From: Eubacteriales bacterium
GTDB lineage: Bacteria > Bacillota > Clostridia > Oscillospirales > CAG-382
Assembly: GCA_045537905.1 (NCBI GenBank)
Contig: JAZSQJ010000015.1
Span: 3,574-67,573, forward strand
DNA length: 64,000 nt
Direction: 5' to 3'
Shown here piece after piece: positions 1,977 to 60,234 of this stretch (positions are counted from its first letter, which is position 1; each line of letters opens with the position of its first letter). A program made the position numbers and the translations under genes. Under the pieces are notes generated by a model. That model saw nothing but the letters and a program-made list of their open reading frames with translations, ran no database searches and was not told the origin of the DNA.

Positions 1977-3650
1977 TTACTGCTTTTTAATATCGTTTCT
2001 CTTTATCTTTTTGGAGGAGGTCTTAGGGAACTCCTCGTCACGGATAACAACCTTGTGTATGTGCTTGTAGGAGGGAAGCCCCTTAAGCATGGCCTGTATA
2101 TCAGCCTTAAATATTTCTTCATAGCTTCTGCCGTCCTTGGGCATAAGCTCCTTATCAAGATAACCCTCAGCACAAAGGTCAACCTCGGCGCCTTTTTCGT
2201 CCTTAACGGAGTAAACAACCGCATCCTTAACGTAGGGAATGGAGTAGATGTAGTTTTCTATCTCCTCGGGGTAAATGTTCTTACCGTTGTCAAGTATGAT
2301 AAGATTCTTTTTTCTGCCGGTAATATAAAGACTGCCATCGGTGTAGTGACCAAGGTCACCGGTGTGGAACCAACCGTCAACAAGAACCTCGGCGGTCTGT
2401 TCGGGGTCTTTGTAGTAGCCCATCATAACCACGTCGCCCTTAACGCAAATTTCACCGTTGCTGTTTTCGTCCTTGTTGTCTATCTCAATCTCAAGGCAGG
2501 GAAGTACAACGCCTACAGAGTCAAAATTGTTGTTATGGCACTGGTTTACGGAAACAAGAGGAGAACACTCTGTAATGCCGTAGCCGATCTCAAGGTCTAT
2601 ACCGATGCTGGTAAAGAACGCGCCAACCTCGGCTCTTACAGGCGCGCCGCCGCAAACAAGCTGACGAAGCTCACCGCCAAAGTTGTCTATAATCTGCTTG
2701 AAGAACTTACGGCGAAAGTCTATGCCTATCTTTTTCAAGCCGTTGCTAAGCTTTATCATCTTTCTTACAAGACCAGCCTTGCCCTTTTCCTCAAGAGCCG
2801 CCCAGACACGCTTATAAAACAGCTCTGCAAAAGCGGGTACGATAAACATATACTCAGGCTTATAAAGCTGGATATTGGCAAGCACTGCACGCAAGGACTC
2901 GTTAATACAAATACAGTTGTGCTTGTGTATGCTTACAAGCACACCGATAACAGCCTCGTAGGTGTGGTGGTAGGGAAGCACGGAAAGGCATCTGCCGCTT
3001 ACGTCCTCGACCATAAGACCGTAGTTCAAGGCAGAACGCAGGTTGTGCTGTGAAAGCATAACGCCCTTAGCGTTGCCCGTTGTACCGGAGGTGTAAACCA
3101 GCATCTTAAGCTCCATATCAGGGCTTGTTTTTTCCGTATAAAGGCTGTAGCCCTCAGCCATAAGCTGACGGCCTTCGTCGATAAGGGAATCAATAGAGAT
3201 GGGTTCATCACCGTCAAGGCAAACTACAAGCTTAACATTTTCAAGCTCCTTGGCGCCGGAGGTAAACAGGGGAACAAAGGCCTTATCACAAAAGATAACA
3301 ACGCTCTCGCTATGCTCAATAACGTGAAGCTTATCCTTCTCGGGCAAGTCCTTATCAACGGGAACGATTATATTAGAGCCGCAAAGGGTACTTACGTAGG
3401 TAACAATCCAGTTATAGCTGTTTGCGCCGACGCAAGCTATATGACAGCCCTTGTCAAAGCCTCTGTTTGAAAGAGCGTTACCAAGACATATAGTCTGCTC
3501 ATAAAACTCCTTACAGCCAACCTCTACAGGCTTTCCTGCCTTTTTATGTATAAACAAGGTCTTGTCACCCATAGCGGCAACAGCCTTTTCCATCATATCA
3601 CGGATTGAGTCTATCGTAACGACTTCGTTATACTTAATCTTTTTTGCCAT
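1977..3650 (-). CDS. AMP-dependent synthetase/ligase (long-chain fatty-acid--CoA ligase-like)
   Basis: Adenylate-forming motifs YTSGTTGNAKGVMLSQHNL and WFHTGDLGHYTDGSLYITGRKKNLIILDNGKNIYPEEIE. I prefer the ATG at 3650 (MAKKIKY) because a GGAGG(G) lies 4-5 nt upstream. The ORF-track start at 3662 has no RBS. Confidence 0.85.
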   Translation of the reverse strand: MAKKIKYNEVVTIDSIRDMMEKAVAAMGDKTLFIHKKAGKPVEVGCKEFYEQTICLGNALSNRGFDKGCHIACVGANSYNWIVTYVSTLCGSNIIVPVDKDLPEKDKLHVIEHSESVVIFCDKAFVPLFTSGAKELENVKLVVCLDGDEPISIDSLIDEGRQLMAEGYSLYTEKTSPDMELKMLVYTSGTTGNAKGVMLSQHNLRSALNYGLMVEDVSGRCLSVLPYHHTYEAVIGVLVSIHKHNCICINESLRAVLANIQLYKPEYMFIVPAFAELFYKRVWAALEEKGKAGLVRKMIKLSNGLKKIGIDFRRKFFKQIIDNFGGELRQLVCGGAPVRAEVGAFFTSIGIDLEIGYGITECSPLVSVNQCHNNNFDSVGVVLPCLEIEIDNKDENSNGEICVKGDVVMMGYYKDPEQTAEVLVDGWFHTGDLGHYTDGSLYITGRKKNLIILDNGKNIYPEEIENYIYSIPYVKDAVVYSVKDEKGAEVDLCAEGYLDKELMPKDGRSYEEIFKADIQAMLKGLPSYKHIHKVVIRDEEFPKTSSKKIKRNDIKKQ

Positions 3651-3805
3651 AAAACCCTCCATAAAAAATAAAAACCGATGTAATTGTTAACACTATTATA
3701 CATAGTTTTCATTACTATGTCAATAGGCGGGCAATAAGTTTTTTTATTTTTCTTGACTAAATGACGTGCTTGTGTTACAATGCTTTAAGAAATGGAGGAA
3801 TTAAA

Positions 3806-4318
3806 ATGCTTAGTCTGGACGAGATAAAGGCGTATCGCAGTCCCCGTTGGGACAAGCTGCCTGATATAGATTTGTATATGGATCAGGTGCTGGTGGTGCT
3901 TGACAAGTATCTTTGTATATTCAAAAACAGTGAGGATGAGAAGATAATCACCTCTGCAATGATAAACAACTACGTAAAGCAGAAGATTACCAAGCCCCCT
4001 GTAAACAAAAAGTACACCCGCTATCACGTGGCGTTTTTGTACGTGGTGTGCGTGCTTAAAAACTTTGTAAGCCTGTCGGATATCTGCATAGGCGTAGGCT
4101 CTCTGTTAAGCGGCAGACACTCTGCCGAGGCGTTTGATATGTTTTGTGAGGAGCTGGACGCCGCCCTTGCCGTTACCTTTGGCGATGGGGAGGATAGCAG
4201 GAAAAAGCCTGTTACCGACGAGGAGAAGATACTTCGTGCCGTAACCACAGCCAGTGCAAATATGCTTTATGCAAAGTACTTTATATCCGCAAAGCAAGGG
4301 GAGCCTAAGGATGAATAA
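3806..4318 (+). CDS. DUF1836 family protein
   Basis: GGAGG lies 7 nt upstream of the ATG at 3806. It carries the signature LYMDQV...SAMINNYVKQKITKPPVNKKYTRYHVAFLYVVCVLK. It overlaps the next CDS by 8 nt. Confidence 0.75.
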   Translation: MLSLDEIKAYRSPRWDKLPDIDLYMDQVLVVLDKYLCIFKNSEDEKIITSAMINNYVKQKITKPPVNKKYTRYHVAFLYVVCVLKNFVSLSDICIGVGSLLSGRHSAEAFDMFCEELDAALAVTFGDGEDSRKKPVTDEEKILRAVTTASANMLYAKYFISAKQGEPKDE

Positions 4319-5304: not shown

Positions 5305-6465
5305 TCATCCCTGTACCAGACCGAGAATCAAACCGCCTGCGATAACGGAAGCGATCTGACCGGAAACGTTAGCTGCGGTGGAATGCATAAGCAAGAAGTT
5401 CTGGGGGTCTTCCTTAAGTCCCATCTTATGGATAACACGGGAGGACATAGGGAAGGCAGAAATGCCGGCAGCACCGATCATGGGGTTAACCTTCTTCTTG
5501 GAGAACAGGTTCATAAGCTTACCAAGCATTACGCCGCCAATGGTATCGAATACAAAGGCAAACAGACCAAGACCCATAATAAGGAGGGTAGCGGGCTTAA
5601 GGAAAGCCTCGCCTCTCATAGTGAAGGCGATGGTAATACCAAGGAACAGGGTAACAAGGTTAGCAAGCTCCTTCTGGGCGGTCTGAGAAAGGTTGTCAAG
5701 CACGCCGCACTCTCTGATAAGGTTACCAAACATAAGGAAGCCAACGAGAGCAACGGAAGCGGGAGCAAACAGACCTGCAAGCACGGTAATTATAATGGGG
5801 AAAAGTATGCGTGTTGTCTTGGAAACGGAAGCAGGCTTGTATTCCATTCTTATCATACGTTCCTTTTTGGTGGTGATAAGACGGATAACGGGGGGCTGGA
5901 TAATAGGCACAAGTGCCATATAGGAGTAAGCCGCAACGGTGATAGCACCGATATAGTTGGAATTAAGCGCACGGGAAACAACTATAGCGGTAGGACCGTC
6001 AGCCGCACCGATTATACCGATAGAAGCCGCATCCTTGATGTCGAAGAAGAAGCTGGCTACAAAATAGGTGAAGAAAATACCAAACTGAGCTGCAGCGCCA
6101 AACAACAGCATCTTGGGGTTGGAAAGCAGGGGGCCGAAGTCAATCATCGCACCTATACCGATAAAGAGTATAAGGGGGAAGAGCTCGTTAGCGATACCTG
6201 CGTTATAAAGAGTCTCAAGAACCTCAGAAACGCCCTCGGCAGGAACAAGATTGCCTGCGGCATCCATCTGCAAGGGGGTAGGTAGGTTCATAAGTATTGC
6301 GCCAAAGCCCATAGGGAGAAGCAGTGTAGGTTCCATATCCTTTTTTATCGCAAGATAAATAAGGATAGCGCCGATAAGCCACATAACAGGCATTTGCCAT
6401 TCTATGTTGCCAAAGTAGCGAAACAGTATCTGTATACTATCCATTACGTAACAGCGGCAGTTCAA
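5305..6465 (-). CDS. sodium ion-translocating decarboxylase, beta subunit (OadB/GcdB/MmdB family)
   Basis: Polytopic membrane protein with the family-typical N-terminus ...LAIKKDMEPTLLLPMGFGAILMNLP... The TTG at 6465 has GGAGG 6 nt upstream. The alternative ATG is at 6444. Confidence 0.85.
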   Translation of the reverse strand: MNCRCYVMDSIQILFRYFGNIEWQMPVMWLIGAILIYLAIKKDMEPTLLLPMGFGAILMNLPTPLQMDAAGNLVPAEGVSEVLETLYNAGIANELFPLILFIGIGAMIDFGPLLSNPKMLLFGAAAQFGIFFTYFVASFFFDIKDAASIGIIGAADGPTAIVVSRALNSNYIGAITVAAYSYMALVPIIQPPVIRLITTKKERMIRMEYKPASVSKTTRILFPIIITVLAGLFAPASVALVGFLMFGNLIRECGVLDNLSQTAQKELANLVTLFLGITIAFTMRGEAFLKPATLLIMGLGLFAFVFDTIGGVMLGKLMNLFSKKKVNPMIGAAGISAFPMSSRVIHKMGLKEDPQNFLLMHSTAANVSGQIASVIAGGLILGLVQG

Positions 6466-6536
6466 GCCGCACCTCCTAAAATATTTCCATTTATTTTAAC
6501 TCATTTGTAAGCTTTTGTCAACTGATAAATTAGCCT

Positions 6537-7217
6537 CTAAAAGAATTTACCGTTTCTTAGGAGAGATTTATCCGTTATTCGAAAACTGTTTTTATAATAT
6601 TCAATAAGTCCTTCCTTTTTCATCTTAGAAAGCTCTCTGGAAAGGGCACTTCTGTCCACGTTAAGGTACCTGGCAAGGCCCTCCCGGTCAAAGGGCAGCT
6701 CAAAGGTAGCGGTGCCTGTTTTGCCGTGCATATAATTAAGCAAGCGTATAATCTTATCCCTGATGGTGGTGGCAGAAATACAAATCATCCTGTCCATCAG
6801 GGTAAAGTATTTTTCCGCATAAATCTTTGCAAGGTTTGAAAGCAAAACGCGTCTCTCCTCTGCAAAATCAAGGGATGGCGTCAGCAAGGACTCAAAGGGT
6901 ATAAACAAGGCTGTGCAGGGCACCGTGCTTATAAGGGCAACGGGACTTCGCATAGTATCGTTTGCGGCAAGAAAATCAGCAAAAATCTCACCAACGCCCA
7001 GGCTGGAGATAAGAGTGCTGTCACCGTCAAAGCCAAGGTGTACCGCCTCAATACTTCCTTCCAGCACAATACCCAGCTTGTCGGTACGGTCTCCCTGGTT
7101 AATAATAACCTCCCCCTTACCAAAGCTGCGCTTTACTGCACCTAAGGCTTGCTTAAGCTCTGCCAGTCTGTCCTCCGTAATGCCTGCAAACAAATCACGT
7201 TCCTTCTTAGTTTTCAT
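6537..7217 (-). CDS. Crp/Fnr family transcriptional regulator
   Basis: N-terminal cyclic-nucleotide-binding-like beta-roll (GEVIINQGDRTDKLGIVLEGSIE) and a C-terminal HTH (REGLARYLNVDRSALSRELSKMKKEGLIEY). Confidence 0.85.
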   Translation of the reverse strand: MKTKKERDLFAGITEDRLAELKQALGAVKRSFGKGEVIINQGDRTDKLGIVLEGSIEAVHLGFDGDSTLISSLGVGEIFADFLAANDTMRSPVALISTVPCTALFIPFESLLTPSLDFAEERRVLLSNLAKIYAEKYFTLMDRMICISATTIRDKIIRLLNYMHGKTGTATFELPFDREGLARYLNVDRSALSRELSKMKKEGLIEYYKNSFRITDKSLLRNGKFF

Positions 7218-21173: not shown

Positions 21174-21200
21174 TTTAAGGGCGTAAAACAGCCTAAAGGG

Positions 21201-21246
21201 GCTGTCTCAAATGCAAGGATTGAGCATTTGAGGCAGCACCTTTTTT
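21201..21246 (+). terminator. intrinsic terminator of the giant gene
   Basis: GCTGTCTCAAATGC / aaggattga / GCATTTGAGGCAGC (one mismatch), followed by caccTTTTTT. Confidence 0.65.
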
Positions 21247-42755: not shown

Positions 42756-44141
42756 TTACTCCTCTTCAAACACTATTTTGTTCAAAGCGTTTATATAGGC
42801 TCTGATACTGGCGGCAACGATATCGGTAGAAATGCCGTTACCCGAATAAAGCTTGCCGTTATTGCGAAGCTTAACGAGGGCACTACCCAAGGCATCCTTA
42901 CCTTCGGTAACAGCCTGTATCTGGAAATCGTCCAGCTCGTAATGGTGACCTATGCACTGCTCGATAGCACGGAAGGCAGAATCTACGGCACCGTCACCCA
43001 TACTAACGCCGTATATAAGCTCACCGCCGCACTTAAGTGTTACCTGCGACATAGAGCTGGTGACGTTACTGCAGGTGGTGGTATAGCTTTCAAGATGGTA
43101 GGTGGAGGGAGCCTGCATAGCGTAGCTTGCTACAAGTGCGTCAAACTCCTTGGCACCGATAGCACCCTTCTTTTCACAAACCTTTATCAAAGCCTTGTGT
43201 ACGTTACCGCAGTCAACCTCAGAAAGGTCATAGCCTAACACGGCGGCAGTTTGTGCAACCTGTGCAATACTGCAGTCGGAGTCCAGCAGTATCTTCTTGC
43301 TTTCGCTGACTGTCTCGTCAGTATAAACCTGATGGCTTATGCTGGAAAGCATATCCTCAATGCTGGTGTGTATCTTGGTGCCGTCCAGATTGCTCTGGGC
43401 GTCAATCTCCGCACCGCAAACCTTAAGTGCGTCAGACAGCTTGCCTGTAAGCAGAACGTCCTTGCCTGCCATAGCGCATTTTACGCCGTCAATACCTTTA
43501 GCAATGCACGTAATAGCAGAGGAAACCGCCATGCTTATCTTATCGGAGGTCTGAATATATACGGGCACGTCAACGGCGGCCTTAACCTTTTCAGCCAGTG
43601 CAGCTATACTTTCGGGCAGAGAAATACCCGCATCGTCACAAAGGGTAACAAGGGTAGCACCCTTTTCAACAGCCTCTTTAGCCGCAGCAATCAAAAAGTC
43701 CTCATCAGCACGGGTAGCGTCAAGGGCGGCAAACTCAACGTCCTCGGTAAGTCCCTTAGCAGCCTTAACCAGCTCGCCTATCTTTGCAAGCATCTTGTCG
43801 CTTTTAAGATGGTAAATATATTCCATCTGAACGGTAGAAACGGGCAGCTCTACCTGTAAACGGGGATTTCCGGCGCTTTTAATGCACTCAAAAGCATCAA
43901 CCACGGAGGATACCGTAAAGCCTACGGGTATAGCAAGGGTAGCGTTTTTAACCTTTTGTGCGATGGTTTTATAAATAATACCGTCTTCACGAAGATTCTT
44001 AACAGGTGCAAGCTCAACGGCGTCTACACCCAACGCAGCCGCACAAGCGGCAATCGCAGCCTTTTCACGGAACAGCAGGGAAACCTCGCTGCTTCCTCCA
44101 AGCTTCTTAAGCGTGATATCGGTAACTTTAACGTTTCTCAT
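42756..44141 (-). CDS. 2-isopropylmalate synthase/homocitrate synthase-like protein with LeuA allosteric (dimerisation) domain; catalytic motifs degenerate
   Basis: The HMGL-like barrel is recognisable (ALDATRADEDFL, LCDDAGISLPES), as is the C-terminal LeuA_dimer-like region (GDGAVDSAFRAIEQCIG...QIQAVTEGKDALGSALVKLRNNGKLYSGNGISTDIVAASIRAYINALNKI). However, DTTLRDGEQ is TDITLKKLGG and the HxH motif is IQTSDK. Confidence 0.7.
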   Translation of the reverse strand: MRNVKVTDITLKKLGGSSEVSLLFREKAAIAACAAALGVDAVELAPVKNLREDGIIYKTIAQKVKNATLAIPVGFTVSSVVDAFECIKSAGNPRLQVELPVSTVQMEYIYHLKSDKMLAKIGELVKAAKGLTEDVEFAALDATRADEDFLIAAAKEAVEKGATLVTLCDDAGISLPESIAALAEKVKAAVDVPVYIQTSDKISMAVSSAITCIAKGIDGVKCAMAGKDVLLTGKLSDALKVCGAEIDAQSNLDGTKIHTSIEDMLSSISHQVYTDETVSESKKILLDSDCSIAQVAQTAAVLGYDLSEVDCGNVHKALIKVCEKKGAIGAKEFDALVASYAMQAPSTYHLESYTTTCSNVTSSMSQVTLKCGGELIYGVSMGDGAVDSAFRAIEQCIGHHYELDDFQIQAVTEGKDALGSALVKLRNNGKLYSGNGISTDIVAASIRAYINALNKIVFEEE

Positions 44142-44196: not shown

Positions 44197-44503
44197 AAAA
44201 AACGCCCTCGTCTCCTTGTTCTTTGCAAAGAGACGAAAACGCATTAACCCACAGGGGGTATATTCCGTTTCCGCGGTACCACTCTTTTTCGTCCCTCAAA
44301 GGAACGCACCTTAGATGCCACCACATCTTAACTCTGTAACGGGAGTTCCCGTCTGTCACTACCTTCTACCGACGGTGATAAAAATCGCAACAGCCGCTCC
44401 GCGGTGAGTTCAGCAAAGCTTTCCCGGCGTTTCACAGCAACCAACGCCTCTCTCAAAGGTGAAATCATTCGCTTACTATTCCGCATCTCTGCGTTTATCA
44501 ATG
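44197..44503 (-). promoter_or_regulatory. T-box riboswitch leader, predicted Leu (CUC) specifier, with terminator/antiterminator
   Basis: Reading the minus strand gives the expected elements. Stem I has GCAGAGATGCGG..AATAGTA on the 5' side. There is an AG-bulge/distal loop GAGAGAGGCGTTGGTTGCTGTGAAACGCC. The specifier-loop 3' side is GAA-CTC-A (CTC at 44406-44408). The conserved T-box sequence is AGAGTGGTACCGCGG (44271-44285). A 12-bp terminator stem CGUUUUCGUCUC/GAGACGAGGGCG plus UUUUUU lies at 44197-44241. Confidence 0.85.
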
Positions 44504-46894: not shown

Positions 46895-46922
46895 GACGCA
46901 GACATTAAAAACGTTCTGCGTC
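46895..46922. repeat. terminator hairpin, left copy of a 28-nt direct duplication flanking element copy A
   Basis: GACGCAGAcattaaaaacgtTCTGCGTC is identical to 47145-47172. Only this copy keeps the upstream AAAA tract. Confidence 0.9.
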
Positions 46923-47144
46923 AGCTTGATGACAAACCTTGTCATCAAGCTGGCAGAGTGCTGAGAAAGAGTACAGACAAGACGAACCGAGGCGATAACT
47001 GTACTAAGTACTGTGAGCCGAGGTTCGTTTTGAACGAAAAAACAAATAAAATGTAGAAAATTCAGGAAAATTTCCCCTGAATTTTCTACTTTAGAATGAG
47101 TATATTTTGTTCTTTTTCGTGCTCTGTGCCTTTGTCAGCGGTCT
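46923..47144 (+). mobile_element. ~222-nt non-coding structured repeat (MITE-like), copy A
   Basis: About 95% identical by eye to the reverse complement of 59473-59696. It has imperfect terminal inverted repeats (C)AGCTTGATGACAAA / (C)AGACCGCTGACAAA and three strong internal hairpins. These are AGCTTGATGACAAaccTTGTCATCAAGCT, GACGAACCGAGGC...GCCGAGGTTCGT and GTAGAAAATTCAGG...CCTGAATTTTCTAC. It has no ORF. Confidence 0.75.
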
Positions 47145-47172
47145 GACGCAGACATTAAAAACGTTCTGCGTC
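47145..47172. repeat. terminator hairpin, right copy of the 28-nt duplication
   Basis: Identical to 46895-46922. Only this copy is followed by TTTTTT. Confidence 0.9.
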
Positions 47173-47278: not shown

Positions 47279-50200
47279 ATGTATAAAAGAATAACAACAA
47301 AAGTATTGTCCTATAAAAGAATAACAACAAAAGTATTGTCCGCAATGCTCAGTTTTTTGATGGTGCTTAGCGTTTTTGTCTTCGTGCCTCCAAAGGACAC
47401 CGCCGTTTCTGCCGCTGGCTATTACAAATGGAGCGGATATGCTACCTATCTGCAGGGCGCAGGTACCGAGGACGACCCGTTTTTGATAAACACACCAAAC
47501 GAGCTGGCTTATTTCCGTAAGCAGGTAAGTGCAACGGATGGCACAATAAGCTATTATGCCAATAACGATACCACTACCACCGCAAAGACCAAGGATGCCC
47601 AGGCGGCTTTCTATAGGCTCACCACAGACATATACTATAACGACCCTAACGGTACTGAGTGGGAAAGCTGGTCGGATACCGTGGGTCCCACCAACGGCGG
47701 TGCCTCTATCCACAAATGGGCACCTGCAGGCTACGATAACGAAAGCACCCGCCGTTTTCAAGGCTGCTTTGACGGCGACGGCCACACGATCTATGGCTTG
47801 TACATAGCATATCCTGACAAGAACTGCATTGGCTTTATAGGCTCCTTCCGTTACGGCACTATAAAGGACCTTACACTGGCAAAGGGCTATGTAAGCGGCG
47901 CCAACCTTGTAGGCGGATTTGTGGGTCAGGCAAAGGTTTGCACCGAGCTTATCAACTGCCACAGCACCCTCCGTGTAAAGGGTGCTATAGGTGTAGGCGG
48001 TCTTGTAGGCGGTAACCCTAAGGACGCTACCGCCCCTTATACCGACGTCGACGTAAACAGCGAGGCAACCATAGCCAACTACGTGTTGTACAACTGTAGC
48101 AACGGTGGTGACGTCAGCGGTACCCACTACGTAGGCGGTCTGGCAGGCATAGTAAGTGCAGGCTCCTCCAGAGTGCAGATATACAGGTCAAGCAACAGCG
48201 GTACTGTCAGTGCAACAACCAATTGTACGGGCGGTATACTTGGTGGTGTAAGCGAAGTGGACAATTTCGGACACAGCCACATACAGCACTGTGTAAACAC
48301 AGGTAAGATACAGGGCGGTACAGGCTATTATACAGGCGGTATAGTAGGCTGTGGCAGAGCTATTGAGGTTGAAAACTGTATAAACCATTCCGATATAAGT
48401 GCAAACGGAGCAATATACACGGGCGGCATCTCGGGCGGCTGTAATTCCGGAGACGGTCTTTCCAACAGCAAGGTAAAAAGCTGCTTTAACTACGGTAACG
48501 TAACGGGTACCCAGTATACCGGCGGTATAATAGGCGTTGCAAAAAGCACTAATGTAAATATGTGCGGTAATATCGGCAACGTTAAGGGAAGCTCCTATGT
48601 TGGGGGTATTTCAGGCAAGTCCGGCGGTAGTAACGATAACCGTGATACCGAGCTTTACGATTGCTACAACACAGGCAGTGTTACCAGCACCGACAATAGT
48701 AGCAGTGTTGCAGGTATTGTGGGCGAGGCATACTGCGAGGGTACGGTAAGCGACAACAAGTTTGTAAAGGTTAAACGCTGTATCAACCTTGGTGCGGTAA
48801 CGGGTGGCAGGGCGATTGCCAACACCACCAGCACTCTTATGAACAGCGCGGGGACAGGTCTGTTTGTGTATCAGTATGCAAATACCTGCTTTGGTCTTGC
48901 AGGGGTAAACACCGGCTTTGACGGCGGTGTAGCGGTAAGCTCCCTTGCAAGCAAGGAGGTGCTTGATAAGCTTAATGCAGGTGGCGCCTGGTCCGCAGGC
49001 TATCCTTATCCCACTCTTAACAGCATTCCCTATGAGCACCAGGGCAGGTCAGAGATGTTTGGCGTAGCAGACGTTAAGGCAGCAAACGCTCCTGCACTGG
49101 AAATAAGCTATAAGATAAATACAGCAAACAGCTACTACAAAAGCCTTTCTGCATTCGATATAGAACACGGCGTGCTTGCAGTCAAGAGCGAGACTCTTGG
49201 CGAGGCAGAGCTTACGGCAAGCACCAACGGCGTTATCAACTGTAAGGGCAATCTCTCCTCCTCTACGGTAAATGCCGTTCTCGGCAACGTATCGGCAGAT
49301 GACTTTGACGATATGTTTACCCTCCGTCCCTACGCAGTATTCACCGTAGAGTCTGTACAGATTTACGTTTACGGCACCCCTACGGAAAGCTCGTTTTACA
49401 CCGCAAAGGGCAGTGCAGACATATCTGCCATAAGCAATACAGCTGCATTCAGCTGTGACGAAAAGCTGTTTTTGCTTACGGGCACTACAGACAAAATCAA
49501 TACAGGCATCATCTCCTCGGGTGAGAACGAAAGCATAAGCTTTATCTCTGCAGACCCCACCGTTGCTACCGTCAGTGGCGGCACGGTAAAGGGACTTAAA
49601 GCGGGCGTTACCGACGTTACCGTAACCTATACAGGTCCCTGGGGTGCAAAAACCGGGCACTGCAAGGTAACGGTGCTTAACGACCTAACAAGCACAGTTT
49701 ACGCCAACCAATATGCAGAAAAGACCGGAGACCTTCGTCTCCACACAAACAAGCTTGTCCGTGTAGGTACTACCAACAAAAACGACGCCTTTGTTCTTGA
49801 CTTCAACGGTACCGTGATTATGATAGACGGCGGTAATAGAAATGACGAGTCCTTGAAGTATCTTCTTAAGCTCCGTGACGAGTTTTTGGAGGAGGGCTAC
49901 AAAAACGGCTTGCTTACCGAGTCTCAGTATTACCGGAGACTGCTTTCCGACAAGTGTAAGATACAGCTTACAAGTCTTATAACCCACTGGCACTCTGACC
50001 ATATCTATGCTCTTCGCTACGTTATCAACCAAAGCACCAGAGTTGCTATCAACGAGATGTATACCGTAAAGGCACCTGCGGGCACCGATGCTGAAAGCTA
50101 CAACAGTTATATTTTGGCCCATGATAGGATGATAACGGCGCTGCAGACCAATAATCCCAATATGGTGGAAAACCGCTTTGATTACGAAACGAAGGTAGTT

Positions 50201-58316: not shown

Positions 58317-59354
58317 CTATGTTTTTACACTCTTGGAAAACTCTACAAGCTGCTTACGAGAAGCAACCCCCAGCTTGCCGTAGATGTTTTTGTTATGGAA
58401 TTTAAGTGTGTTTTCCGTAATCCCCAACATACTCATTACGTCCTTGGTGGATTTTCCCTCCAGATAAGCGTCATATATAAGCCTTTCCGTTTTTGTCAGG
58501 GAAGCCAGACCGTTTTTGTATAGCTGTAAAAGCTCTTTATCCACGATAATAGGAGCCGTTTTGCTTTTATTTTCCTCGCCCAGCTCAGAAATTTGTTCCT
58601 TAAGCCTGTTTTGCTCGGCAATAAGTATATTAAGTCCAAGCAAAAACAGCTCACTTATTATGTACGATACGGAAAGCAGCTCAAAGCCTATGTTAACAAG
58701 CTGTTCAATAAACCACAGACCTATATTAATAAAAACTGCCATTACAAGAATAAAGGTGTGAACCTTGTTCTCCAGCGTCTTTTTGCGTAGTGCGTAAATA
58801 ATAGTGTAAACCATTGCAGAAAAATATCCTACAAGATACACAAGATAAACGCCGTGCAAGGGACCGTAAACCTTTTTAAGCACCGAAAACCCGTCAAGGC
58901 TTACAAGATAAACCTCTTTATAGTAAATATCTAAGTAACCGGGACTGGCGGCAATCAAAAACACCACGCCGCCAATACCTAAAAGAAGCATAACCACAAG
59001 CCGCTTGCATTTAATTTTCATAGCGTCAAGCATTATCATAAGCATTGAAAGGGGTAAAAATACCGAGCCCAGATAGGAAAGCCTGTTAGCCATAAGGGCA
59101 TTCCCCAGCGTGTCCGAAACGGAAAGCCATAAATACCCAAGGTTTACTACAAAAACCGAGGATAACAATACCGTATACCAAAAATCCTTTTTCCTTGATA
59201 AAAAGGTATAGCAGGCAAGCACGCCAAAAGCAATTAAAGCGGTAACAGCGTAAACCATCGAAAGGTTAGCGGTTTTGTTGTCAAATATCTCGTTGTTAAA
59301 AAGCACAAAAGTAAGCATAGCCGTAGGTATGCAAAACCAAAGCAGCTTTTTCAT
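58317..59354 (-). CDS. membrane-embedded LuxR-family transcriptional regulator (7-8 TM sensor domain + C-terminal HTH)
   Basis: GGAGGG RBS. About 250 aa of TM helices precede the LuxR-type HTH LTKTERLIYDAYLEGKSTKDVMSMLGITENTLKFHNKNIYGKLGV. Confidence 0.8.
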   Translation of the reverse strand: MKKLLWFCIPTAMLTFVLFNNEIFDNKTANLSMVYAVTALIAFGVLACYTFLSRKKDFWYTVLLSSVFVVNLGYLWLSVSDTLGNALMANRLSYLGSVFLPLSMLMIMLDAMKIKCKRLVVMLLLGIGGVVFLIAASPGYLDIYYKEVYLVSLDGFSVLKKVYGPLHGVYLVYLVGYFSAMVYTIIYALRKKTLENKVHTFILVMAVFINIGLWFIEQLVNIGFELLSVSYIISELFLLGLNILIAEQNRLKEQISELGEENKSKTAPIIVDKELLQLYKNGLASLTKTERLIYDAYLEGKSTKDVMSMLGITENTLKFHNKNIYGKLGVASRKQLVEFSKSVKT

Positions 59355-59391: not shown

Positions 59392-59420
59392 ACTATATCA
59401 TATTTTCATCAATTAGTCAA
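59392..59420 (-). promoter_or_regulatory. putative sigma-A promoter of the 7TM-LuxR gene
   Basis: On the minus strand: TTGACT (59415-59420), 17-nt spacer, TATAGT (59392-59397). Confidence 0.5.
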
Positions 59421-59440: not shown

Positions 59441-59472
59441 AAGGTGTTGGCAGAAATTACAGCCAACGCCTT
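59441..59472. repeat. terminator hairpin, one copy of a 32-nt direct duplication flanking element copy B
   Basis: AAGGTGTTGGCagaaattacaGCCAACGCCTT is identical to 59697-59728 except for one base (T at 59445 versus C at 59701). Confidence 0.9.
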
Positions 59473-59696
59473 CAGACCGCTGACAAAGGCACAGGGCACG
59501 AAAAAGAATAAAATATACTCATTCTAAAGTAGAAAATTCAGGGAAAATTTCCCTGAATTTTCTACATTTTATTAGTTTTTTCGTTCAAAACGAACCTCGG
59601 CTTACAGTACTTAGTACAGTTATCGCCTCGGTTCGTCTTGCCTGCACTCTTTCTCAGCACTCTGCCAGCTTGATGACAAGGTTTGTCATCAAGCTG
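59473..59696 (-). mobile_element. ~222-nt non-coding structured repeat (MITE-like), copy B, inverted relative to copy A
   Basis: Its reverse complement aligns end to end with 46923-47144, with roughly 8-10 mismatches by eye. It has the same three hairpins and the same termini, with one extra C and G at the junctions. Confidence 0.75.
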
Positions 59697-59728
59697 AAGG
59701 CGTTGGCAGAAATTACAGCCAACGCCTT
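59697..59728. repeat. terminator hairpin, second copy of the 32-nt duplication
   Basis: AAGGCGTTGGCagaaattacaGCCAACGCCTT has an 11-bp stem. It lies 6 nt after the stop of the CDS at 59734-60234 (minus strand). Confidence 0.9.
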
Positions 59729-59733
59729 ACATT

Positions 59734-60234
59734 TTAGTTGTCTTGTTTTTTGAAAAGTGCCATCAGGTCACAAACAGCCTCATAGCTGATAAAGCTGTCC
59801 TGGTTGTGATTTGCGCTTATACATTCACCGTTTTTGTATTCTACGTAAAGGTAAGCGCCGTACATATCGGGCAGTCCGCTGACACACACGTTTATTCCGT
59901 TGTGCTTTGCAAAACCGTAGACGGTTACAAGCTCCTGCAGCTTATCCATAAAGCCGGCAGACGCTGTAAAGCAATGCTGTTCCTTGCGGCATTTATAGCC
60001 AGCCTCTACCTTGTCTTCCGCAAGTCTTGCTGTAAAGGTAAATACATCCCGAAAAACATCCTCGTCCGCCAAATCAAGGGTAGAAGCAGTGCATTCAAAC
60101 GCAATTATCTCGGTACAGCTGATTGCCTTGGCAGCGCTATGATTGCTGCGGTCAATCGTTCCGCCGTCAACGATTTCTTCCTCAGGCACTTGGCCTTTCC
60201 TGCCCAAAATGCTATTCAATAGTTTTTCCATCAT
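59734..60234 (-). CDS. hypothetical cytoplasmic protein
   Basis: ORF of 166 aa with an AAGGGA RBS, no signal peptide and no recognisable family. It lies downstream of a lipoprotein gene on the same strand. Confidence 0.55.
   Translation of the reverse strand: MMEKLLNSILGRKGQVPEEEIVDGGTIDRSNHSAAKAISCTEIIAFECTASTLDLADEDVFRDVFTFTARLAEDKVEAGYKCRKEQHCFTASAGFMDKLQELVTVYGFAKHNGINVCVSGLPDMYGAYLYVEYKNGECISANHNQDSFISYEAVCDLMALFKKQDN

Follow-up and report, generated by a model that had tools for sequence, protein, structure and literature searches.

Structure-guided target choice is rare among transposons and has been documented in bacteria mainly for IS1272, where the target hairpin is lost. IS1272 and TnSha1, two elements of the IS1182 family from staphylococci, move by a process named 'stem-loop replacing' or structure-dependent transposition (Wan et al., 2017, PMC5678879; Furi et al., 2016, PMC4923244). 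Their targets are inverted repeats or terminator hairpins of 21-38 bp, and up to ~85 bp, without sequence specificity. The insertions, which occur in both orientations, mostly lie immediately downstream of genes; one hairpin can be hit repeatedly and independently, and all or part of the hairpin is removed without any duplication (PMC5678879, PMC4923244). A cruciform was proposed as the target by Wan et al., who also drew joining at the 5′ feet as a hypothetical, unobserved pathway b that would duplicate the whole stem-loop (PMC5678879). As cited in these two papers (PMC5678879, PMC4923244), Siguier et al. (2015) described some IS1182 members as targeting palindromes. Here, a 224-nt element is described that was identified in two copies (A and B) in 64,000 nucleotides of a Eubacteriales contig (JAZSQJ010000015.1, positions 3,574 to 67,573; this whole stretch is called the window) and that lies between two complete copies of its target hairpin.

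Structure-dependent targeting of hairpins is already known from IS1272. New is the duplication instead of deletion, and that it is carried by a miniature transposable element with inverted-repeat ends (MITE). The element shares with IS1272 and TnSha1 the hairpin targets, the lack of sequence specificity, the use of both orientations, the position at gene 3′ ends and ends capable of forming stem-loops. In contrast, the hairpin is lost there whereas two complete copies are found here, which corresponds to the hypothetical pathway b of Wan et al.; moreover, the element is a 224-nt non-coding derivative without a known transposase. The best explanation, for which we estimate a probability of about 0.7, is a MITE family whose target hairpins are selected by DNA structure and which is probably mobilized in trans by an IS1182-related DDE transposase.

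Hairpin duplication around the 224-nt element

Copy B is a member of a family of ~224-nt non-autonomous inverted-repeat elements (MITEs) of ruminant-gut Clostridia. Its flanks are direct repeats of 32 nt (AAGGTGTTGGCAGAAATTACAGCCAACGCCTT on the distal and AAGGCGTTGGC... on the proximal side, seen from the upstream gene), with one mismatch (T at 59445, C at 59701). In 100 shuffled versions of the window, no flank match comparable to this repeat was obtained. A preliminary description of the locus had reported the duplication together with its mismatch, and all of its sequence statements hold. The repeat unit is an 11-bp hairpin, AAGGCGTTGGC-loop-GCCAACGCCTT, which folds as RNA on the gene strand with -19.5 kcal/mol for the proximal and -14 kcal/mol for the mismatched distal copy. 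The flank forms a strong stem-loop 5 nt past the stop codon of a 166-aa open reading frame (ORF), followed by the tail TTTATACG without a clear T-run; the tail of the copy A hairpin is T6. Copy A is located on the opposite strand and shows eight differences to copy B over 224 nt (96.5% identity).

For the identification of further copies, a 19-nt pattern from the terminal hairpin of the element was searched against public genome contigs. The loci of this survey carry L-numbers, and its counts hold among the matches listed. The scan yielded at least 95 contig stretches with the element in addition to the two window copies, amounting to more than 100 copies in at least nine metagenome-assembled genomes (MAGs) of goat, sheep and other gut Clostridia. 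Nearly all hosts are goat or sheep gut Clostridia MAGs (RGIG1823, 1834, 1907 and 6501); five Eubacteriales SGB bins and an Oscillospiraceae MAG were also found. The matches are often located at contig ends, as would be expected of a repeat at which assemblies break, and many MAG contigs end within the element. The complete copies with 60-nt flanks, 38 in number including both window copies, were analyzed for duplications.

Direct repeats of 20-38 nt (median 26 nt) flank 31 of these 38 copies and are perfect in 22. The duplicated units are unrelated in sequence between sites, and every one of them is a hairpin with a stem of 7-16 bp. Insertion into a 3′-end hairpin with duplication of the whole hairpin, as described before for the window copies, is therefore the rule of the family (31/38). 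With partial copies included, a junction was counted as adjoining a hairpin if a perfect stem of at least 6 bp had its foot no more than 3 nt away. This was the case for 85 of 100 junctions on the left and 46 of 50 on the right, compared to 3 of 96 and 1 of 47 control positions located 150 nt away. The element ends, the spread in multiple copies, the hairpin duplication and the absence of sequence specificity are directly visible in these loci. The element has the characteristics of a MITE: it measures 224 nt, is non-coding and dispersed in many copies, and has terminal inverted repeats and target duplications that differ from site to site.

The exact borders are given by L072, with the junctions ...GGTG/CAGC and ...TCTG/CACC (the slash marks the junction), where the outer C and G are part of the element. 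The element is thus 224 nt long with CA...TG termini, and the duplication at copy A comprises 26 nt (46896-46921 and 47146-47171). Of the two lengths considered in the preliminary description, 224 nt was retained and 222 nt was discarded.

The duplication is mostly symmetric around the dyad of the hairpin. Its first base is an A in 26 and its last base a T in 27 of 31 copies, and it typically includes 1-3 A:T pairs beyond the GC-rich stem. In 15 of the 31 copies the palindrome ends together with the duplication. The loop of one flank hairpin is inverted relative to the other in L048, L057, L045 and L093, and the loop in the terminal hairpin of the element itself is flipped from AACCT to AGGTT in L032, L011 and L027. 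Loop flipping may be a general property of hairpins after insertion.

In L093 (positions 12-354), the flanks are perfect inverted repeats of each other over more than 36 nt, which would fit a fold-back assembly artefact or an inversion. The fold-back arrangement points to an assembly artefact.

Such flanks, together with unlike hairpins on the two sides in 7 of 38 copies, suggest that some MAG contigs are rearranged or misassembled. They would fit an explanation without any transposition, with the flanking hairpins being part of the repeat unit or resulting from local duplication, recombination or assembly error. The flank hairpins are, however, unrelated between sites, whereas the inner 224 nt are homologous and have the same end bases. 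The pattern also recurs in the window and in assemblies produced independently in different studies, with the hairpins at expected terminator positions, which makes this explanation extremely improbable.

Gene context and orientation of the copies

The gene context was determined on each side from the longest ORF that measured at least 100 aa and was located within 400 nt. Seven copies had no such ORF on one or both sides. Among the 31 informative copies, 18 are located between convergent genes and none between divergent genes. The remaining copies are in tandem contexts, 5 in the orientation of the window copies (both of them included) and 8 in the opposite orientation. By our own arithmetic, the absence of divergent contexts has a p of ~1e-4 if one-quarter of intergenic spacers are divergent, and the tandem split is unremarkable (two-sided binomial ~0.6). 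The family has a strong preference for hairpins at gene 3′ ends and no orientation bias. The terminator preference expected for a larger set of copies was thus found, but an orientation preference was not.

Individual loci are consistent with this result. The genes lepA (L073) and folD (L062) and a gene for a PALP enzyme (L038) stop 28-58 nt from the right end of the element, with the A-runs on the expected side. A pair of orthologous loci from two MAGs (L024, 785-1043; L081, 4462-4683) share 86.7% identity over 2.9 kb; the copies in them are oriented oppositely and lie between different duplicated hairpins. They are independent insertions at the same gene end.

According to the preliminary description, the element has a fixed polarity with respect to transcription into the terminator, and its signals or read-through could modulate the LuxR-type gene located downstream. 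The strand comparison does give the same order along the upstream gene for both window copies, i.e. gene, hairpin, CAGCTTGATGAC..., ...CAGCGGTCTG, hairpin. Likewise, the reported distance of 20 nt between the distal hairpin of copy B and the predicted −35 box could be reproduced for the promoter-like site TTGACT-17-TATAGT, which is only a consensus match. Since the proximal hairpin loses most of its T-tract on insertion, some read-through into the element is plausible. The same orientation of two copies is expected by chance half the time, however, and the polarity is therefore not supported. The 5 to 8 split of the tandem contexts, the 18 convergent contexts and the position of lepA, folD and the PALP gene at the opposite end also argue against it. 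As to regulation, the sequence beside the −35 box of the LuxR-type gene is identical to the state before insertion, because the hairpin was duplicated, and a simple scan of the element predicted no outward-facing promoter. Polarity combined with a regulatory effect is thus quite unlikely. Copy B probably left the promoter of the LuxR-type gene untouched and lengthened the 3′ untranslated region of the 166-aa gene.

A hairpin remains on each flank, and the far copy still has the original T- or A-tract, so that the insertion would be near-neutral for the host genes. Termination is probably preserved at the cost of a ~250-nt longer 3′ untranslated region. Such near-neutrality could account for the copy number, and a 'terminator-safe' element, if this is true, could explain dozens of copies per genome. 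For genome annotation, twin hairpins at a distance of ~224-300 nt at gene ends of gut Clostridia mark the element and not tandem terminators or small-RNA genes.

Structure of the element and proposed mode of insertion

An alignment of 30 copies with a length of 219-227 nt was used for the structural analysis. The inverted repeats at the ends (CAGCTTGATGACAAACC and CAGACCGCTGACAAAGG) match in 11 of 17 positions, and the pairing continues inward between columns 33-56 and 210-232. The end pattern is CAR...TGACAAAGG and CCTTTGTCAGCGGTCTG. The inverted repeat of the left end adjoins an inward-lying inverted copy of itself, which results in a perfect 13-bp terminal hairpin. Its stem covaries, positions 3-5 with 27-29, with 8-10 double changes. 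An internal stem is formed by columns 57-67 and 103-113. The central hairpin of 13-17 bp is maintained by compensatory changes in up to 12 of 30 sequences per pair and, with a T-rich tail on the strand opposite to the element, has a terminator-like score in both window copies. Conservation per column is 93-97% at the ends compared to 71-78% in the centre, and the median pairwise identity is 80%. No match to the element was found in Rfam, even at permissive E-values and with guide-RNA families included.

The perfect, covarying terminal hairpin at one end could be the recognition structure of an enzyme acting on single strands. In that case, an HUH enzyme (IS200/IS605, REPIN/RAYT or IS91-like) or an IS110-type enzyme would move the element as a single strand into hairpins of the lagging-strand template. 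The hairpin targets would agree with this, as would an IS200-type tnpA in one of the genomes, which is nested in the copy at L046. These families likewise favor hairpins or terminators. They duplicate no or few bases, however, whereas 31 of 38 copies here have a duplication of 20-38 nt, and they use one orientation to the target strand, whereas both occur here even at orthologous loci. The ends are inverted repeats and not two different subterminal hairpins, and the missing Rfam match also disagrees with this type of movement, which is very unlikely.

For a MITE mobilized by a DDE transposase, the following course is proposed. The targets would be short GC-rich hairpins, mostly those of intrinsic terminators at gene 3′ ends, in either orientation. 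A transposase supplied in trans, most likely of the DDE type and probably IS1182-related, would bind both ends of the element. The paired-end complex would then engage a short GC-rich palindrome extruded as a cruciform. Each of the two 3′-OH ends would attack a different strand, at the two 5′ feet or 1-3 bp outside them, and the palindrome would be copied on both sides by gap repair. Because opposite strands would be joined at the outer 5′ feet, gap repair would give a complete hairpin on each side, and the length of the duplication (20-38 bp) would be set by the hairpin. What we infer here is a staggered cut at the feet of the hairpin, a target in cruciform form and the type of enzyme.

More tentatively, and in our view with less than even odds, this could represent a mode of transposition for which no detailed description exists so far. 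The enzyme would use a hairpin or cruciform, extruded from any sequence, as a ruler and join the element at both outer feet, and whole terminators of 20-38 bp would be duplicated, as a mirror image of IS1272. The catalyst, if this is true, could belong to an uncharacterised branch of IS1182 or be a different integrase. The more than 30 independent events form a natural data set on joining positions relative to the stem, namely 1-3 A:T pairs outside the GC core, symmetric to the dyad and with A and T as duplication ends, which constrains models of a cruciform-reading transposase.

The geometry of the outcome is the same as in the duplication of CRISPR repeats. Cas1-Cas2 duplicates a whole, often palindromic repeat of 25-50 bp and integrates off-target beside inverted repeats capable of cruciform formation, and casposons generate duplications of 14-15 bp (PMC5137440). 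In all of these, two joinings flank a palindromic unit that is duplicated as a whole, which is an analogy and not evidence for an enzyme. By this analogy, a Cas1-type, casposase-like integrase could have duplicated the hairpin as in spacer integration. Cas1 belongs to another enzyme class, and its targets are set by the leader-repeat sequence or by tRNA ends; the described casposase targets are sequence-specific tRNA-end sites. The inverted repeats and the terminal hairpin of the element are closer to IS1182-type ends. No cas1 or casposon gene was seen among the ORFs examined near the copies or in the window, where no systematic search for cas1 was made. Overall, an integrase of this type is highly improbable, and the DDE transposase is preferred.

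The relation to the IS1182 family was analyzed with ~15 elements taken from plasmids (including ISClbu1, IS1182, ISSau3, ISKpn6, ISCfr1 and elements of Subdoligranulum, C. felsineum and Bacteroides). These are 1.5-2 kb in length and encode a DDE transposase (PF05598, PF13751, PF01609). ISfinder lists direct repeats of 0-60 bp for the family. The tips were found to be G(G/A)GGCTG..CAAAA, and GGGGCTGT..CAAAA in the elements from Firmicutes (ISClbu1 and those of C. felsineum, E. faecalis pE035 and Subdoligranulum). In ISClbu1 and the elements of C. felsineum and E. faecalis pE035, terminal hairpins are formed by the inverted repeat and its inward copy, as at the left end of the MITE. On their two sides, the Firmicutes elements have a stop codon and a T-run, or an A-tract and a T-tract, which looks as if a terminator hairpin had been replaced. 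The target logic is thus the same and the outcome the opposite, and since the enzyme was not found, membership of the MITE in the IS1182 family is unproven.

Two IS1182-family elements, L112 (P. fluorescens pPHE24) and L121 (L. salivarius plasmid), have one half of a split terminator on each side (AAAAACCCGCC...GGCGGGTTTTT) or an A-tract on one side and a T-tract on the other, which suggests that hairpin-centred insertion is widespread in the IS1182 family. In addition, a terminator hairpin in the window (21195-21245) and flank hairpins of L095, L083, L030, L018 and L032 have the arms GGGGCTGT..CAAA / ..ACAGCCCC, which resemble the tips of the Firmicutes elements. These hairpins may be relics of such elements or merely look-alike ordinary terminators.

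Several results weigh against an IS1182-related MITE that duplicates the hairpin by cuts at its feet. The ends of the MITE (CAGACC-GCTGACAAAGG and CAGCTT-GATGACAAACC) have only the short core GCTGACAAAG in common with those of IS1182 (GGGGCTG..CAAAA), and this core is located 6 nt inside the tip. None of the ~15 inspected IS1182-family elements has a duplicated hairpin or matching tips. The palindrome extends 1-10 bp past the duplication in 16 of 31 copies (e.g., copy A and L011). The cut is therefore not simply at the end of the palindrome, and the boundary of the duplication resembles more closely the base of the stem's stable part. The seven copies with unlike hairpins do not follow the rule either, which could be due to recombination between copies or to misassembly of MAGs. 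No two copies are identical and the closest pair differs by 4 nt, which gives no indication of very recent bursts.

Further points of this kind concern the missing enzyme, parent element and empty site. No transposase was found in the element, which has no ORF, in 10 mid-sized ORFs of the window analyzed with Pfam, or in 571 kb around 100 copies. A tblastn search with four IS1182-family transposases against all copy-bearing loci and the window gave no match. A full-length parent with these ends was absent from the genome, metagenome, viral and plasmid searches among the matches listed, which is weak evidence because MAGs seldom assemble insertion sequences. An empty site was not recovered, and look-ups of the exact proteins of both flanking genes returned no record. 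The empty site was not recoverable because the nearest homologue of the downstream regulator is only 71% identical; the loci of the regulator relatives are not syntenic upstream.

The searches for a parent element had the following outcomes. Self-comparison of the 571 kb of copy-bearing loci revealed no repeat of at least 500 bp besides orthologous genes, and an inverted-repeat pattern search of the same loci gave no further pairs except a 34-nt remnant with two ends in L021. Viral scans and a plasmid blastn yielded nothing, and four matches of the metagenome scan were attributed to chance, since they lie in GC-rich coding DNA. With the Subdoligranulum transposase as the query, a protein search gave nothing but near-identical copies from the human gut, and no lead to a parent. 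Longer variants of the MITE were rejected as parents, their additional content being nested unrelated elements (an IS3-family element in L030, an IS200 tnpA in L046 and mini-repeats of ~37 nt). Other hairpin duplications around longer inserts were traced to a different repeat family (L092) and to dockerin repeats (L042).

Publications on target duplications that are long or palindromic, and on terminator-associated MITEs, contained little of relevance beyond the IS1272 papers. Class C group II introns home to positions just past intrinsic terminator hairpins and recognize structure over sequence. As retroelements with ribozyme and reverse transcriptase they differ from the element; they insert in one orientation and are not known to duplicate the hairpin. 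With a length of only 224 nt, both orientations and no Rfam match, the element was rejected as an intron of this class. Long target duplications also occur in IS1634 and IS1549, which are not known to track hairpins. A subgroup of the IS1202 family generates duplications of more than 15 bp (PMC10132070). These are likewise far above the usual 2-12 bp, but within a subgroup their length does not vary, and it is linked to dif-like sites. Among the classical MITEs reviewed in PMC10969869 (Correia, RUP, ERIC, BOX/SPRITE), none is described as duplicating a whole terminator hairpin. The element resembles them in being short, non-coding, multi-copy and intergenic, with inverted-repeat ends, folded transcripts and mutual nesting, whereas their duplications are short and fixed, such as TA.

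Features of the window and neighboring repeats

The features of both window copies and the genes next to copy B are listed in Table 1.

Table 1. Positions of the element copies, their hairpins and the genes adjacent to copy B in the window.
Feature	Position	Strand	Remarks
MITE copy B	59473..59696	-	224 nt; minus-strand reading CAGCTTGATGAC...CAGCGGTCTG; from family alignment
Proximal target-hairpin copy, copy B	59697..59728	-	32 nt, 11-bp stem; starts 5 nt past the stop of the 166-aa gene
Distal target-hairpin copy, copy B	59441..59472	-	single mismatch, stem weakened
Left-terminal perfect hairpin, copy B	59666..59696	-	outer inverted repeat and inward inverted copy; 13-bp stem, loop AACCT
Central hairpin, copy B	59529..59565	.	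17 bp; terminator-like on the strand opposite to the element, tail ATTTTATT
Conserved right end, copy B	59473..59505	-	TTTTTCGTGYTCTGTGCCTTTGTCAGCGGTCTG; right inverted repeat; 97% per-column conservation
Promoter-like site, LuxR-type gene	59392..59420	-	TTGACT-17-TATAGT, TG extension; consensus match only
Upstream 166-aa ORF	59734..60234	-	3′ end toward hairpin; no Pfam family matched
Downstream 345-aa membrane regulator	58317..59354	-	HisKA_7TM and GerE/LuxR-type domains
MITE copy A	46922..47145	+	224 nt; 96.5% identity to copy B
Left hairpin duplicate, copy A	46896..46921	+	26 nt, ACGCAGACATTAAAAACGTTCTGCGT
Right hairpin duplicate, copy A	47146..47171	+	26 nt; followed by CTTTTTTG, the original T-tract

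JGI metagenome contigs (L097-L100, ~3770-4002 in coordinates of L097) contain a diverged copy of the element downstream of the gene for the 71%-identical LuxR-type homologue. This copy shows no clear hairpin duplication.

Several copies contain or adjoin other repeats. A second family of small repeats has units of ~37-40 nt (e.g., CACCCCATTGCTCACTTCGTTCGCAACGGGGACCCCG and CCACCCCACAAAAATACATTTTTGTGGGGACCCCGG), which flank tpiA in L092 (5294-5470 and 6388-6500) and are nested in the loops of 260- and 300-nt variants of the MITE in L062, L024, L017, L001, L069, L026, L018 and L095. The ~37-nt mini-repeats of the longer variants are of the GGGGTCCCC type. An unrelated IS3-family element with orfA and orfB is nested in the central hairpin of the copy in L030 (~2922-4300), and the IS200-type tnpA of L046 (~5880-6560), likewise unrelated, is nested in a MITE copy together with its own hairpins. 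The remnant in L021 (4593-4626) is a 34-nt mini-element of two right-end-type inverted repeats (CAGACCGCTGACAAAG..CAAAAGGCAGCAGTCTG), which is located between two unlike hairpins and adjoins a full copy.

Two additional features were detected in the window. Just downstream of copy A, the 5′ end of a 1321-aa ORF contains a 30-nt tandem duplication (47283-47342), by which YKRITTKVLS is encoded twice. Furthermore, a T-box leader (44250-44498, minus strand) was identified with 111 bits upstream of a 461-aa ORF (42756-44141).

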